A stretch of DNA of 64,000 nt from Candidatus Harrisonbacteria bacterium (GTDB lineage Bacteria; Patescibacteriota; Minisyncoccia; UBA6257; 02-FULL-45-10c), in contig JACPTS010000001.1 in the NCBI GenBank assembly GCA_016192685.1, positions 311,647-375,646 on the forward strand, in the 5' to 3' direction. The first letter of the stretch is position 1. The number at the start of each line of letters is the position of its first letter. This document shows positions 36,326 to 48,579 of the stretch, in pieces. The translations under genes and the position numbers were made by a program. The notes beneath the pieces were generated by a model. It had not been told where the DNA came from. It saw only the letters and a list, made by a program, of their open reading frames with translations, and ran no database searches.

Positions 36326-36417
36326 TCCTATATTTAATTTTTTTTGTTCTATAAGAACTTTAAATCAAATGGCTATTTTTTGTCAATCAATTCTTTGATT
36401 TTTTTGATATAAAGCTG

Positions 36418-36490
36418 TGGGTCAGGATGGAATCGGACCATCGATCCCCAAGGTATAAGCTTGGTGCTTTAACCGCTAAGCTACTGACCC
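36418..36490 (-). tRNA. tRNA-Ile(TAT)
   Basis: GGGTCAG acceptor; CCAAG-CTTATAC-CTTGG anticodon arm; A discriminator. Confidence 0.9.
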
Positions 36491-36606
36491 ATTTATAAAA
36501 TTATATATAAACTAACATTTTTTGAAACTATTGACAAATTATTATAGTATGGTATAATTATTTTAGTACATTGAGTTCTGAAAATTCTTAAAAACAAGGA
36601 GGTAGT

Positions 36607-37008
36607 ATGGAGTGGGGGCAATTGGTGCTTGTAACTATTCGGGTGCTTTCGGGAATATCCTTAGTCTCTTTTTCTTTATTTATGATTTACGAAATGCTTC
36701 CAGATTGGGAACGTTGTCGCAATCTTTTGCCAGAAAAACCAGAATATTCAAAAGATATAAATTATATACGCCGTCTAAATGCAGAATTACTTTGGAAAAA
36801 TGAATGTTTGTCATCTTTGGGAAACTACTTATTTATATCATTACCTCTAACTTGTTTCGGACTAACATTAATAACTGAAAAAGATTTTTTATCAATAATT
36901 GGAGTTTTCTCTTTCCTTTTATTTTTGTCTTATCTTGCCATAAGCACAGTAATTTCTTGGATTCAGAAAACAATCAAAAAAGGAGGAGTGAAATGTACAT
37001 CTCAATAG
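36607..37008 (+). CDS. hypothetical membrane protein
   Basis: TTGACA..TATAAT promoter and AAGGAGG SD upstream; three TM segments. Confidence 0.6.
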   Translation: MEWGQLVLVTIRVLSGISLVSFSLFMIYEMLPDWERCRNLLPEKPEYSKDINYIRRLNAELLWKNECLSSLGNYLFISLPLTCFGLTLITEKDFLSIIGVFSFLLFLSYLAISTVISWIQKTIKKGGVKCTSQ

Positions 37009-37202
37009 AGATGCTTGTGACGATGTGGTGCGGCCTTGGATTGATCGGCTTCATCAATGCGCTCCAGAAGCTTTACGGCGGAATCGCCGCAGGAATCTTG
37101 GCTATAAGATGGGAACTTGGCTATGATCTTAGCGTTTCGCTCATGGGAGGACCTTTCTCGCTTCTTTTTTCAATCAACCCTTGGCTTCCACTATCAAAGT
37201 AA
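36993..37202 (+). CDS. small hypothetical membrane protein
   Basis: AGGAGG SD before ATG 36993; hydrophobic; followed by a terminator. Confidence 0.5.
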   Translation: MYISIEMLVTMWCGLGLIGFINALQKLYGGIAAGILAIRWELGYDLSVSLMGGPFSLLFSINPWLPLSK

Positions 37203-37263
37203 CCAACAGCCCCGCGCTTACATAGGCGGGGCTTTTGTTTTTTAAAAACCTCGCGTCAAACTG

Positions 37264-37295
37264 GTTAACAATATTACGATCGTAACATTGTTAAC
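37264..37295. repeat. CGATCG-centred palindrome downstream of the PaaX/Cas2-like gene
   Basis: GTTAACAATATTACGA|TCGTAACATTGTTAAC (1 mismatch). Confidence 0.92.
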
Positions 37296-37316
37296 TAAAA
37301 TAATTTATTCTTTTAT

Positions 37317-37889
37317 CTAATTTAATGACCCCTTTTTAATTACCCTAAAAATATGTATATAAGAAGTTAATTCGAGTTTTTCTATATCAAATAAAAAATC
37401 TTCTGGAATTTTATATTCTCCCGCCCACACACTTTTTTGCAGCATTTCAAATGCTAATAATTTTAATTGTTTTCTTAACCATATTCTTTTATATTTTAAT
37501 CTTTCCGGTATGTCAAAAATTATAAGATTTAAAGCACTATCTTTATGGGGTGCGTATAATCTTTTCGGAAAATAAGCAGTTTTGAATATTTTAATTTTTT
37601 CTAATTTTTGTATACCGTTTTTAGTAATTTGCCAATGCGATAACCCTTTTATTTTTTGTTTTTTTATAAAACCCTGTTTTTTAAGACGAGAAAGTAGGGC
37701 GAAAAAGCTTTTTTCTTGTAATCTTTCAATCTGTTTTTTATTTAGTTTTTCAGGATAAGTATAACCGTGCATTACTCGGCGCATTGCCTTGTAAGTTTTT
37801 TGATATCCAGGAATAATGTCGTCTATAAGTTCGGCGGTAACTAAAACTTTATGGCGCAATTTTTTTAATATAATTTCTGTTTGGGTCAT
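37317..37889 (-). CDS. PaaX-like protein: winged HTH plus Cas2-like domain
   Basis: LSRLKKQGFI....WQIT..G wHTH; LIIFDIPE..K.KR.WLR..L....F..LQKSVW Cas2-like motif. Confidence 0.85.
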   Translation of the reverse strand: MTQTEIILKKLRHKVLVTAELIDDIIPGYQKTYKAMRRVMHGYTYPEKLNKKQIERLQEKSFFALLSRLKKQGFIKKQKIKGLSHWQITKNGIQKLEKIKIFKTAYFPKRLYAPHKDSALNLIIFDIPERLKYKRIWLRKQLKLLAFEMLQKSVWAGEYKIPEDFLFDIEKLELTSYIHIFRVIKKGSLN

Positions 37890-37912
37890 ACTTATATTTT
37901 ATTCATTAACGC

Positions 37913-37948
37913 TAGTTAACAACATTACGATCGTAATATTGTTAACTA
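37913..37948. repeat. CGATCG-centred palindrome upstream of the PaaX/Cas2-like gene
   Basis: TAGTTAACAACATTACGA|TCGTAATATTGTTAACTA (1 mismatch). Confidence 0.92.
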
Positions 37949-37983
37949 ATTAAAAATTAACGGAAAAACTAATTTCTTGATTT

Positions 37984-39834
37984 TTAAATACCTAGCGGTT
38001 TCAATTTAAATCCGCCAACAATTTTATTAAAGTCTTCCTGCTCCAAGGTCTCTTTTTCCATCAAAGCCGAGGCAATGGCTTTCAATACCTGCCTTCGGGA
38101 ACTGATGATTTTTTTGGTTAAATCATAGGCATGGTCAATAAAAACTTTTACCTCCTCGTCAATTTTCGCCGCCACGCTTTCCGAATAATTCCGTTCGTGA
38201 GAAATTTCTTTTCCTAAAAATACCAATTCCTGGGTTTCACCGAAAGTCTGCGGCCCAAGTTTTTCGCTCATCCCAAATTGGGTGACTAAAGCCCTTGCCA
38301 CCCGGGAAGCTTCTTTTAAATCGCTTGAAGCGCCGGTGCTCATATCGCCAAAAACCATTTTTTCCGCCACATAGCCGCCAAGCGCCACCGCAATATCCGT
38401 TAAAAATTGGGTGCGGCTCCGCAAGTGCAATTCCTCCGTGGGCAATTTCAAAGTATATCCGCCAGCCCGGCCGCGGCTGACAATAGAAACTTTATGCACC
38501 GGGTCCGCGTCTTTTAAACTCGCGGCCACCAGCGCGTGCCCGGCTTCATGGTAAGCGGTAATTTCTTTTTCTTTCTGGGTAATCACCCGGCCTTTCCGCT
38601 CCGGACCAAGCAATACTTTTTCCACTGAAGAATAAAGGTCGTCTTGGGAAACTAATTTTCGGTTGTGCCTTGCGGCCAAAATCGCCGATTCATTCATCAA
38701 ATTTGCCAAATCCGCGCCGGAAAATCCGGGAGTACGGACAGCCACTTTTCTCAAATCCACGTCTTTTCCAAGCGGTTTTTCTTTGGAATGGATTTTCAAG
38801 ATTTCTTCCCGGTCTTTAATATCCGGCAAGTCCAAAATTACCCGGCGGTCAAAACGGCCCGGACGAAGTAAAGCCCGGTCTAAAATATCCGGCCGGTTAG
38901 TTGCGGCAAGCACAATTACATTAGTATCCCGCTCAAAACCGTCCATTTCCACCAAAATTTGGTTTAAAGTTTGCTCCCGTTCATCGTGGCCGCCGCCTAG
39001 CCCGGCGCCCCGCTCCCGGCCAACCGCGTCAATTTCATCAACAAATAATATGGAAGGCGCGGCTTTTCTGGCAGTCTGGAAAGCATCGCGGGTTCGGGCC
39101 GCGCCGACTCCGACGAACATTTCCACGAATTCAGACGCGGAAATATGGAAAAAGGGGACATTGGCTTCGCCAGCCACTGCCCGCGCGAGCAGGGTTTTGC
39201 CGGTTCCCGGCGGGCCCATTAAAAGCACGCCGCGCGGAATCCGGGCGCCCATTTCCAGAAATTTTTTCGGATTTTTCAAAAAATCCACCACTTCTTCCAA
39301 TTCTTGTTTAGCTTCTTTTAGCCCGGCTACGTCTTTAAAAGTGAGCCGGTCTTTAAAAGCGCCGAACATTTTTAAATTGGATTTTCCGAAACTGAAAGCT
39401 TGGCCAGCGCCGGCTTTGGCTTGGCTGAAAATAAACCAAAACATGGCGCCGATAATAATCAGCGGCAAAAGCGTCGGAATTAAAATTTCCGCCCAAAAAC
39501 GCCAGCCGCCCGGCTCTTTAACTTCTAAATTAACCGATTGCAGAGCCGCGGAATTAACGCCGTAATTATTTAAAGTTTCCGTCAGGCCGGCTTCGGATTC
39601 TTTTTTAGCCACTGCCCTCTCTTCATTTTTTAAATCAATAAAAAGGTCATTGCCGCGAATGGTAATTTTTTCCGCTTCTCCCTTATTGATTCTGGTCACT
39701 AAATCGCTGATGGATAATTCCAGCGGCGCCTTGCCGGTCTGGAATAAAAGCGAAAAGGCAAGCGAGATCGCCAATAAAGTAATGGTGGCCCAGAACAGGT
39801 TTTTAGAAAAATTAATTTCTTTCTTAATTCTCAT
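37984..39834 (-). CDS. ftsH: ATP-dependent zinc metalloprotease FtsH
   Basis: two TM helices, [27 protein letters not shown]. Confidence 0.98.
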
Positions 39835-39891
39835 AGCTTTAAGTATATAAAAAAATAACAAAAAGAAAAAGCCCCGTCAACTGGCCGCTTC

Positions 39892-47423: not shown

Positions 47424-47575
47424 GCCCTGCCTGTATTTCTGACGGCACAGCCCCGCTTTGCGGGGCTACGCCTCAACGCCAAAAATTTAGGCTACCATTA
47501 TGCGATCGCATAATGGTAGCCTAAATGCCGAGCTTTTGGCGTTTCCGTAGTTGCCGCACAAAACACAGGCAGAGC
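47424..47575 (-). repeat. structured dispersed repeat, copy E, containing a 42-bp perfect palindrome (47485-47526)
   Basis: CGGCAC..CTACGCCTC..GCCGAGC..TCCGTAGTTGCCGCAC core. Confidence 0.88.
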
Positions 47576-47780: not shown

Positions 47781-48260
47781 ATGGGCATTTTGGTTCAAGG
47801 AATTCTCTGTTATGGATTCCGCATCAAGGACGAAGATGGTAACGAGGAAAACGTAACCATCAACTGGCTCCCCAAAGATCCAGACGGTGCTGAGGGGGAC
47901 TTCGAGGACTTTCTCGCTAAGCTGTTCGGCCTTAAAGAACCTGACAGTCAATACGACGAAAAGAGGTATGCCACAGACCCAGAGTATAAGAGGATGTGGA
48001 GCAGTTACTGGGAAAAGAAAAACAAGCTCGAAGAAGAGATTGGGGTAACCCTTGTTCATCACTGCTCTGGCGAACAGCGAATGTGTATCTTGGCTGTCAC
48101 GGAATCAGTGCGGGAAGCGAACTGGGGTGAGCCTGTCAATCTTGGTCAATCCATCACCGACAAGCAGACGGAGTGGCGAGAGAAACTTCGTGCCTTCTGC
48201 GAACGAGTGAATATCCAATTTGAAGAGCCTCAGCTTATCCTTTGCAGCTACTACGGATGA
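47781..48260 (+). CDS. hypothetical acidic protein (accessory)
   Basis: TTGACA promoter, AAGGAGGT SD and its own terminator; codon style differs from neighbours. Confidence 0.7.
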   Translation: MGILVQGILCYGFRIKDEDGNEENVTINWLPKDPDGAEGDFEDFLAKLFGLKEPDSQYDEKRYATDPEYKRMWSSYWEKKNKLEEEIGVTLVHHCSGEQRMCILAVTESVREANWGEPVNLGQSITDKQTEWREKLRAFCERVNIQFEEPQLILCSYYG

Positions 48261-48410: not shown

Positions 48411-48579
48411 GCTCCGCCTCTCTGTTGTGCGGCAACTACGGAGCCGCTAAAAGCTTGGCCTTCTACCTAACTATCTGACGATCGTCAGATAGTTAGGTAG
48501 AAGTTTTGGCAGCGAGGCGTAGGCGGCGCCGACCACAGGAGTCGGCGAACGCCGGTGCCGGTAAACAGAGAGGCGGAGC
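48411..48579 (+). repeat. structured dispersed repeat, copy F (inverted), containing a 44-bp perfect palindrome (48460-48503)
   Basis: GTGCGGCAACTACGGAG..GCTTGGC..GAGGCGTAGGCG..CACAGGA..ACGCCGGTGCCGGTA core. Confidence 0.9.

Follow-up and report, generated by a model that had tools for sequence, protein, structure and literature searches.

Why does a gene that resembles a bacterial repressor carry the same long palindrome on both of its sides? The question is raised by a 64,000-nt stretch of contig JACPTS010000001.1 of a Candidatus Harrisonbacteria bacterium (the window), whose genome, labelled G000 here, comprises 724,852 bp and is 99.9% complete. The gene, which we refer to as mini-PaaX, encodes a 190-residue protein with a PaaX-type winged helix and a Cas2-fold domain; together with its two palindromes it forms the cassette described below. 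We find that the twin-palindrome layout is a trait of the protein family and not due to chance, and that palindrome, gene and palindrome are gained and lost as a single unit at non-orthologous sites. We give an even chance to the reading that the cassette is a selfish module similar to repetitive extragenic palindromes (REPs) and their REP-associated tyrosine transposases (RAYTs), in which a predicted PaaX-type dimer likely binds its terminal palindromes.

The original prediction, made from the letters of the window, described an AT-rich gene bracketed by near-identical CGATCG-centred palindromes at distances of about 22 and about 24 nt, and this description is borne out (Table 1). Each palindrome is 38 nt long, the two are 92% identical in direct orientation, and their 32-nt cores (37264-37295 and 37915-37946) are each one mismatch away from the consensus. 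The gap between the stop codon and the core of the downstream palindrome measures 21 nt, and the gap between the upstream 36-nt copy (37913-37948) and the ATG measures 23 nt. The palindrome centres are 651 bp apart, with a midpoint that falls 2 nt off the midpoint of the gene, and the upstream palindrome lies 35 nt past the ftsH stop codon. The GC content of the mini-PaaX ORF (open reading frame) is 27.9%, compared to 42.4% for the window. The palindrome is not matched in 100 dinucleotide shuffles, nor in metagenome contigs scanned for the exact pattern. At up to 3 mismatches, no copies other than these two are present in the whole genome; a third, diverged copy lies outside the window.

As predicted, no CRISPR-like array was found in the 64-kb window, and Cas1 (PF01867) has no match in the genome. 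There are no paa genes among the cassette neighbours (ftsH, small membrane ORFs and tRNAs), with no whole-genome paa search made, and a sigma-70 scan found no promoter on the mini-PaaX strand.

The downstream copy is no accident of this locus. A search of all ORFs of G000 with hmmsearch yields only one other family member, a paralogue of 188 residues with 30% identity (G000:C1:269932-270498). It is bracketed by 36-nt twin palindromes that are 100% identical to each other and of unrelated sequence (TATCCAGTTATCAAGCTC/GAGCTTGATAACTGGATA). Homologues were detected in 16 of 40 relatives (17 of 41 genomes including G000), with best identities of 41-42% and up to 4 copies per genome. They occupy 29 places in the relatives, 3 of which are truncated or broken and were left out; at 20 of the 26 evaluable places both flanks share a repeat, and two further places have weaker twin palindromes. 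The pairing of palindromes in homologue flanks, which had been put forward as a check, was also assessed in other species (80 loci, 77 evaluable). At a score threshold of >=14, a shared flank repeat is present in 62 of the 77 loci but in only 1 of 101 control ORFs from the same loci. The family itself is very large, with 5278 clusters at 50% identity (E <= 1e-3), and the proteins of the top 150 clusters are all 184-224 residues long. The nearest relatives of the window protein are 54% (cluster representative) and 48% (metagenome contigs) identical to it. The family appears to be limited to ultra-small Patescibacteria.

Family palindromes have a median length of 40 nt, and their centres lie about 660 bp apart. 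The central hexamer of 124 palindromes is CGATCG in 76 cases, CGGTCG or CGACCG in 19 and CAATTG in 10. Family-wide identity at the three bases beside the dyad is about 82%, and positions 4-5 are the most variable. Within a genome, each paralogue has a palindrome of its own. ATTATCTACTA is common to three cassettes whose proteins are 52-64% identical, and some examples of outer boxes agree at 11 of 11 positions.

The self-complementarity of the palindromes is maintained as their sequence changes. We observed 24 compensated mirror changes between twins, compared to 5.4 +/- 2.1 expected for independent substitution (maximum 11 in 1000 simulations). Mismatches between half-sites in 49 cassettes number 189 within the palindrome, versus 232 in direct and 248 in inverted comparison across the twins. 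Since the twins differ at mirror positions and yet stay self-complementary, something keeps each palindrome symmetric, perhaps selection acting on a hairpin or cruciform structure, perhaps copying from arm to arm. Folded as single-stranded DNA, the sense strand of the downstream palindrome forms a continuous 14-bp stem (z = -5.1) and that of the upstream palindrome a continuous 16-bp stem (z = -5.2), each with one G.T pair. This pair is the sole mismatch of each palindrome, and it becomes A.C on the opposite strand. Family-wide, sense-strand mismatches comprise 34 G.T and 18 A.C (p = 0.036) in addition to 35 others, an excess that weakly hints at a single-stranded or RNA form.

Were the palindromes to act as RNA, they would be hairpins at both termini of the cassette transcript with a role in stability, termination or processing, and the Cas2-fold domain may be an RNase or RNA binder that acts on them. 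We consider this improbable. Compensated changes and the prevalence of G.T on the sense strand, both in the window and in the family, are compatible with such hairpins, as are solitary palindromes at places where relatives have terminator-like hairpins. However, the strand bias of G.T is weak, the palindromes are not followed by a T-run and have no Rfam family match, and the centre hexamer is conserved as a sequence, with asymmetric variants that have no strand bias (CGGTCG 10, CGACCG 9). RNA hairpins would also leave block-wise gain and loss unexplained.

Following the orthologous ftsH, neither a cassette nor a palindrome is present in 17 relatives. The homologues are non-syntenic and have no conserved neighbour, the largest neighbour cluster being found in 10 of 100 family loci. 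The homologues do not form a syntenic, vertically inherited group with only an upstream operator, and in the family the palindrome-gene-palindrome unit proposed for the window is present or absent as a whole. The genes on either side of the cassette are located <=6 kb apart in G000 for 23 distinct loci that are occupied in other genomes. The gap in G000 is 1-460 bp and lacks a long palindrome in 11 of these 23 loci; this comparison leaves out 11 further loci with larger gaps. At the one remaining locus, which is polA-like, the subfamily-B paralogue of G000 stands where a relative carries a subfamily-A cassette facing the other way.

Within genus g10, the G014 cassette occupies an 806-bp spacer between a CIRCE-like element (controlling inverted repeat of chaperone expression) and the next start codon. 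The same spacer measures 25 bp in G017 and about 30 bp in G009, and is palindrome-free in both. The G014-type spacer, adjacent to a CIRCE-like inverted repeat (TTAGCACTC-N9-GAGTGC; L005:1335-1362, with orthologous sites in L172, L173, L170 and L171), is an insertion hot spot within g10: other, unrelated small ORFs are found there in G021 and G019.

Two related genomes contain cassettes, L100 and L102, that are 89% identical over 796 nt, while orthologous flanks of these genomes are only 70-76% identical. The cassettes are located at different loci, and the reciprocal sites contain neither cassette nor palindrome. A single change separates their 36-nt upstream palindromes. The dN/dS (nonsynonymous to synonymous rate) ratio of the protein-coding pair is 0.12 at a dS of 0.37, which points to purifying selection on the mini-PaaX protein. 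The window protein groups with three cassettes that belong to two genomes of its host family and are located at separate places in the chromosome (SH-aLRT, the Shimodaira-Hasegawa approximate likelihood ratio test, 98). Cassette GC is below flank GC at 74 of 77 loci.

The empty sites also bear on the possibility that the gene integrates into a pre-existing solitary palindrome, which would serve as a landing site similar to an att site or a CRISPR repeat and be duplicated or recombined in the process. The single-palindrome empty site expected beside ftsH by the original prediction was not found in 17 relatives, and the empty sites that were seen (11 of 11 short ones in G000 and two within a genus) are palindrome-free. 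In addition, Cas1 is absent from the genome, and the palindromes are internally more symmetric than a cross-over at the centre between different sites would leave them. Integration of this kind is therefore very improbable in our view, in spite of several features that suit it: asymmetric twins are more often in direct than in inverted orientation (16 versus 6, with 40 ties; 10 versus 4 in a second count), the repeats are 36-40 nt long, the protein has Cas2 homology, solitary palindromes with matching boxes exist, and there is no extra target-site duplication.

Solitary palindromes of both types are present in G000. The third window-type copy (TTTAGTTAACAATGCTACGA/TCGTAGCGTTGTTAACTAAA; G000:C1:502799-502838, L164:1500-1539) is located between convergent genes, 3 nt from the dnaE stop codon (7 nt by another count) and 31 nt from the end of the other gene. 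Its outer boxes and centre are unchanged, while its spacer has changed. A window-type palindrome after dnaE was found in none of 20 relatives. Ordinary terminator-like hairpins occupy this spot in three relatives. In G015 it holds a loopless palindrome of 36 nt that differs from the window type and is similar to those flanking a G011 cassette. The paralogue palindrome has two to three further copies in G000, two of them in intergenic spacers. One copy is in frame (12 codons; G000:C3:60612-60647, L165:813-848) within a 3-methyladenine-glycosylase-like gene, where it occupies a variable loop; this ORF and its counterpart in G016 are 58% identical. The G016 homologue has a different, GC-rich and partly palindromic insert at the same place. 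In all, G000 contains 3 window-type and 4-5 paralogue-type copies, as well as four orphan CGATCG palindromes of cassette build without a cognate gene, two of which are inside the window. The positions of the solitary palindromes fit REP-like behaviour and not a regulon of promoters.

They are also difficult to reconcile with a host transcription factor, in which mini-PaaX would be a truncated PaaX-type autorepressor that loops between two operators, the solitary palindromes would make up a small regulon and the unit would be immobile. According to the review PMC9493321, the E. coli PaaX dimer recognizes TGATTC-N27-GAATCA, a palindrome of 39 bp whose half-sites are far apart, and PaaX acts as a repressor at the promoter of its own gene. 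The PaaX homology, the similarity to this operator, the upstream palindrome 23 nt before the ATG and the purifying selection on the protein would all be expected of such a factor. However, the third window-type copy is located between two convergent stop codons, a place without a promoter, and one paralogue-type copy is in frame inside a coding region. Neither a conserved neighbour nor a regulon is evident, and the block-wise presence and absence at non-orthologous sites speaks against an immobile unit. Compensated mirror changes are not expected of two independently selected half-sites, and the PaaX_C effector domain is missing. We regard a host transcription factor as unlikely.

What kind of protein, then, is encoded between the palindromes? 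The best-supported profile match is the Cas2-like PaaX_M domain of Pfam (44.4 bits, cut-off 24; residues 121-183). The match to Pfam PadR is weak (E 0.001, below cut-off), and those to CRISPR_Cas2 of Pfam (18.7, cut-off 23.8) and to TIGR01573 (cas2; 21.1, cut-off 24.5) are both sub-threshold. TIGR02277 (PaaX) scores 23 bits against an equivalog cut-off of 264.55 and is covered at profile positions 34-153 of 279. No Pfam match to the PaaX_C effector domain was found, and the protein ends at residue 190. Other than PaaX_M, PadR, Cas2 and PaaX, profile matches are limited to a sub-threshold S10_plectin; the Cas2 models of PADLOC match at E about 7e-5.

An AlphaFold2 (AF2) model built from 150 family sequences (mean predicted local distance difference test score, pLDDT, 90; predicted template modelling score, pTM, 0.70) comprises a winged helix (about residues 1-106) followed by a Cas2-fold domain of beta-alpha-beta-beta-alpha-beta topology (residues 115-183). 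The model and the PaaX_M match agree with the winged helix-turn-helix and Cas2-like domain with an FDIPE motif that had been read from the sequence; the motif corresponds to residues 125-129. The top structural match is 8a39, the phenylacetyl-CoA-responsive repressor PaaX of E. coli W (residues 106-175; Z 8.0, root mean square deviation (rmsd) 2.6 over 70 residues), followed by about twenty Cas2 chains (Z 6.4-7.7); these Z-scores come from an earlier model built on 13 sequences. VapD toxins are also among the fold matches, and Cas2 and VapD share the ferredoxin-like fold of this domain (Z 7.3-7.7; 68-70 residues aligned at an rmsd of 2.2-3.1). Residues 1-106 of the AF2 model match PadR-like, MarR and TubR regulators as well as 8a39.

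G92, D126, P128, R135 and S153 are invariant in 150 family sequences, and F125, E129, K134, W137, R139, Q151, V154, W155, G157 and Y112 are >=90% conserved, while the helix-turn-helix part is highly variable. D126 is located at the end of strand 1, as is the Asp of Cas2. In a sequence comparison of the family profile with the PDB, type II Cas2 chains 6jhz and 8ia4 were retrieved at E about 1e-3, and the motifs FD[IL]P (or F/Y-D-I/L-P) and QKSV[WY] of the family align with theirs. Mini-PaaX differs from Cas2 in its fusion to a DNA-binding domain, its sub-cut-off scores and the lack of cas1 in the genome and of an array in the window. The arrangement of an N-terminal winged helix and a Cas2-like middle domain is shared with PaaX (8a39; 3l09; TIGR02277), as is the size of the palindromic site (about 39 bp, with widely spaced half-sites). 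Unlike PaaX, mini-PaaX lacks PaaX_C, scores far below the equivalog cut-off and, as far as the neighbours go, is not accompanied by paa genes; the cassette is probably mobile and its gene has a site on either side. In the solved PaaX-like protein 3kfw, VTSI stands opposite the FDIP stretch, although in one weak alignment (E 0.79). The Cas2-type Asp, invariant in mini-PaaX, is thus not generally required for the PaaX fold.

The structural similarity to VapD toxins and to Cas2 nucleases, and the PADLOC hits, raise the possibility of a toxin or defence module made of one protein, in which a VapD/Cas2-like nuclease would be joined to its own DNA-binding autoregulator and the palindromes would be operators only. 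The hyper-diversity and patchy distribution of the family would be in line with this. Nevertheless, there is no partner gene, none of the neighbours scanned suggests a defence island, and the downstream and solitary palindromes would be left unexplained, making such a module extremely improbable.

The reading of the cassette as a selfish REP/RAYT-like module accommodates these observations best in our assessment. We infer that the protein recognizes its own ends because it is homologous to PaaX and because the palindromes have a PaaX-like site size and spacing, are private to each paralogue and, in the L100/L102 pair, are nearly unchanged on the upstream side. Binding of this kind, in combination with block-wise gain and loss and with solitary copies, would argue for the selfish module. 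Its layout has a precedent: as described in Nunvar et al. 2010 (PMC2817692), a REPtron gene has a copy of its short palindromic repeat on either side in an insertion-sequence-like layout, the same repeats are also solitary in intergenic spacers, the repeat type differs from paralogue to paralogue and the palindromic character is upheld by complementary changes. The differences concern the protein, the repeats and the hosts. RAYT is an IS200/IS605-type tyrosine (HUH) transposase, whereas the cassette protein combines a winged helix with a Cas2 fold. The cassette palindromes are long, loopless, AT-rich and CGATCG-centred and do not have the GTAG head of REPs. They occur in 2-5 copies per type, while REPs usually exceed 100 copies per genome. 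Cassette hosts are Patescibacteria, and REP/RAYT hosts are Proteobacteria.

A classical insertion sequence shares with the cassette the presence or absence at non-orthologous sites and terminal repeats that move with the gene, but the cassette has neither a target-site duplication (39 loci) nor a match to a transposase family. The ends of IS200/IS605 elements and the attC sites of integrons are self-complementary DNA in which structure is conserved more than sequence, and IS200/IS605 makes no target-site duplication. These systems rely on HUH or tyrosine recombinases and on imperfect, asymmetric hairpins. In contrast, the cassette palindromes are near-perfect, and the cassette does not encode an HUH or tyrosine recombinase.

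A mechanism for the selfish module can be outlined. In a dimer held together by the Cas2 fold, each winged helix would rest on one of the outer boxes (TAGTTAAC), in a manner similar to PaaX; in the window the boxes are about 26 bp apart from centre to centre. The upstream site would overlap the promoter region and lead to autorepression. The two palindromes would delimit the element, and the module would spread selfishly. Solitary palindromes would be either leftovers of deletions between the twins or copies that are minimal and non-autonomous. The mover could be a host function or the protein itself, cutting via the invariant Asp126 near the CGATCG dyad. The invariance of the Cas2-type Asp, the conservation of the CGATCG dyad and the lack of an effector domain leave room for a nuclease role. 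A stronger version of this proposal, which we consider doubtful, is that a winged-helix-guided, Cas2-type nuclease dimer cuts the CGATCG dyad and moves both the cassette and bare palindromes. It would then represent a new self-mobilising class and, as a free-living entity, be related to the Cas2 half of CRISPR adaptation.

Several observations weigh against the selfish module. Profile scans of the mini-PaaX protein found no known transposase or recombinase domain. There is no target-site duplication beyond the palindromes (mean 1.23 nt, compared to 1.47 nt for shuffled pairing; 39 loci). The window palindrome is present in three copies, far fewer than REPs. In aggregate, the similarity of outer boxes is linked only modestly to that of the proteins, with an identity at outer positions 10-17 of 0.42 for proteins 45-80% identical versus 0.32 for proteins 30-45% identical. 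Relatives were not found in viral contigs (pattern scan) or in plasmids or phages (tblastn), leaving the module with no known vehicle. The nearest relative of the window cassette is 54% identical, and its own mobility is therefore extrapolated from the family. Pairs of occupied and empty sites could partly reflect deletions instead of insertions. Finally, the L100 (2900-3034) and L102 (3035-3169) contigs both end 51 nt past the downstream palindrome, and about the last 130 nt of the two are 100% identical, compared to 86-96% in the rest of the cassette. This shared end is probably an assembly break at a repeat and may colour the comparison.

The palindrome centre contains GATC, a sequence that is strongly under-represented in G000 (948 observed, 2279 expected by a Markov estimate); the cassette palindromes keep it despite this scarcity. 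Two adjacent D12-class (Dam-like) adenine methyltransferase genes (L168/L169, G000:C1:46409-48227) are present in the genome, and no DpnII-family nuclease was found. Shuttling by a restriction enzyme at GATC was considered and dropped, since no enzyme of the DpnII family was found and whole palindromes at new sites would stay unexplained. The centre as a divergent pair of -35 elements (TTGACG-type centres) was also discarded, as the window centre TTACGA does not fit.

The cassette is part of a low-GC island, whose features are listed in Table 1 together with the orphan palindromes of the window. The small membrane-type ORFs of the island (36607-37202) have no homologue after ftsH among 17 relatives, and a terminator-like hairpin at 37215-37238 closes the pair. 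The two orphan palindromes differ from each other and flank a 159-residue ORF (47781-48260, plus strand) without a Pfam family. The first resembles a palindrome at G000:C1:310108 and the flanks of a cassette in the relative L006. Two other repeat families are present in G000. A loopless palindrome centred on CGTACG (TATACCCCTTATTCGTACGAATAAGGGGTATA) occurs in four intergenic copies without a family gene alongside (G000:C1:52758, C1:72896, C3:21462 and C3:24355), and a hairpin repeat with variable loops (CCGAGCACATAA...TTATGTGCTCGG) is found at G000:C1:121108, 476268, 485165 and 516111.

Table 1 Features of the cassette and its surroundings in the window. A slash separates the two parts of a palindrome.
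Feature	Position	Strand	Description
Downstream (3'-side) palindrome	37261..37298	none	CTGGTTAACAATATTACGA/TCGTAACATTGTTAACTAA; outer box TAGTTAAC-type, variable spacer, CGATCG centre
mini-PaaX gene, 190 aa	37317..37889	minus	PadR/PaaX-type winged helix and Cas2-fold domain
Upstream (5'-side) palindrome	37912..37949	none	CTAGTTAACAACATTACGA/TCGTAATATTGTTAACTAA; CGATCG-centred
Low-GC island, 26-43% GC	36491..37983	none	between tRNA-Ile and ftsH; contains the cassette and two small ORFs
tRNA-Ile	36417-36490	minus	borders the low-GC island
ftsH	37984-39861	minus	borders the low-GC island
Two overlapping small membrane-type ORFs, 133 and 81 aa	36607-37008, 36957-37202	plus	within the low-GC island
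Orphan perfect palindromes, 42 and 44 nt, CGATCG-centred	47485-47526, 48460-48503		downstream of gyrA

Literature searches, whose coverage did not extend to subscription journals, found no paper describing a palindrome-flanked mini-PaaX family, and the family is apparently undescribed. The minimal genomes of Patescibacteria are thought to carry little mobile DNA, and the scale of the finding lies in the presence of a very large family of this kind in these ultra-small bacteria. Should the protein bind its own palindromes, nature would have supplied hundreds of protein-site pairs, each with a site of 36-40 bp, that are orthogonal to one another. Should it move them as well, the family would constitute a transposition system built on the Cas2 fold, which, if true, would bear on the origin of the CRISPR adaptation module and on the emergence of REP-like repeats outside Proteobacteria.

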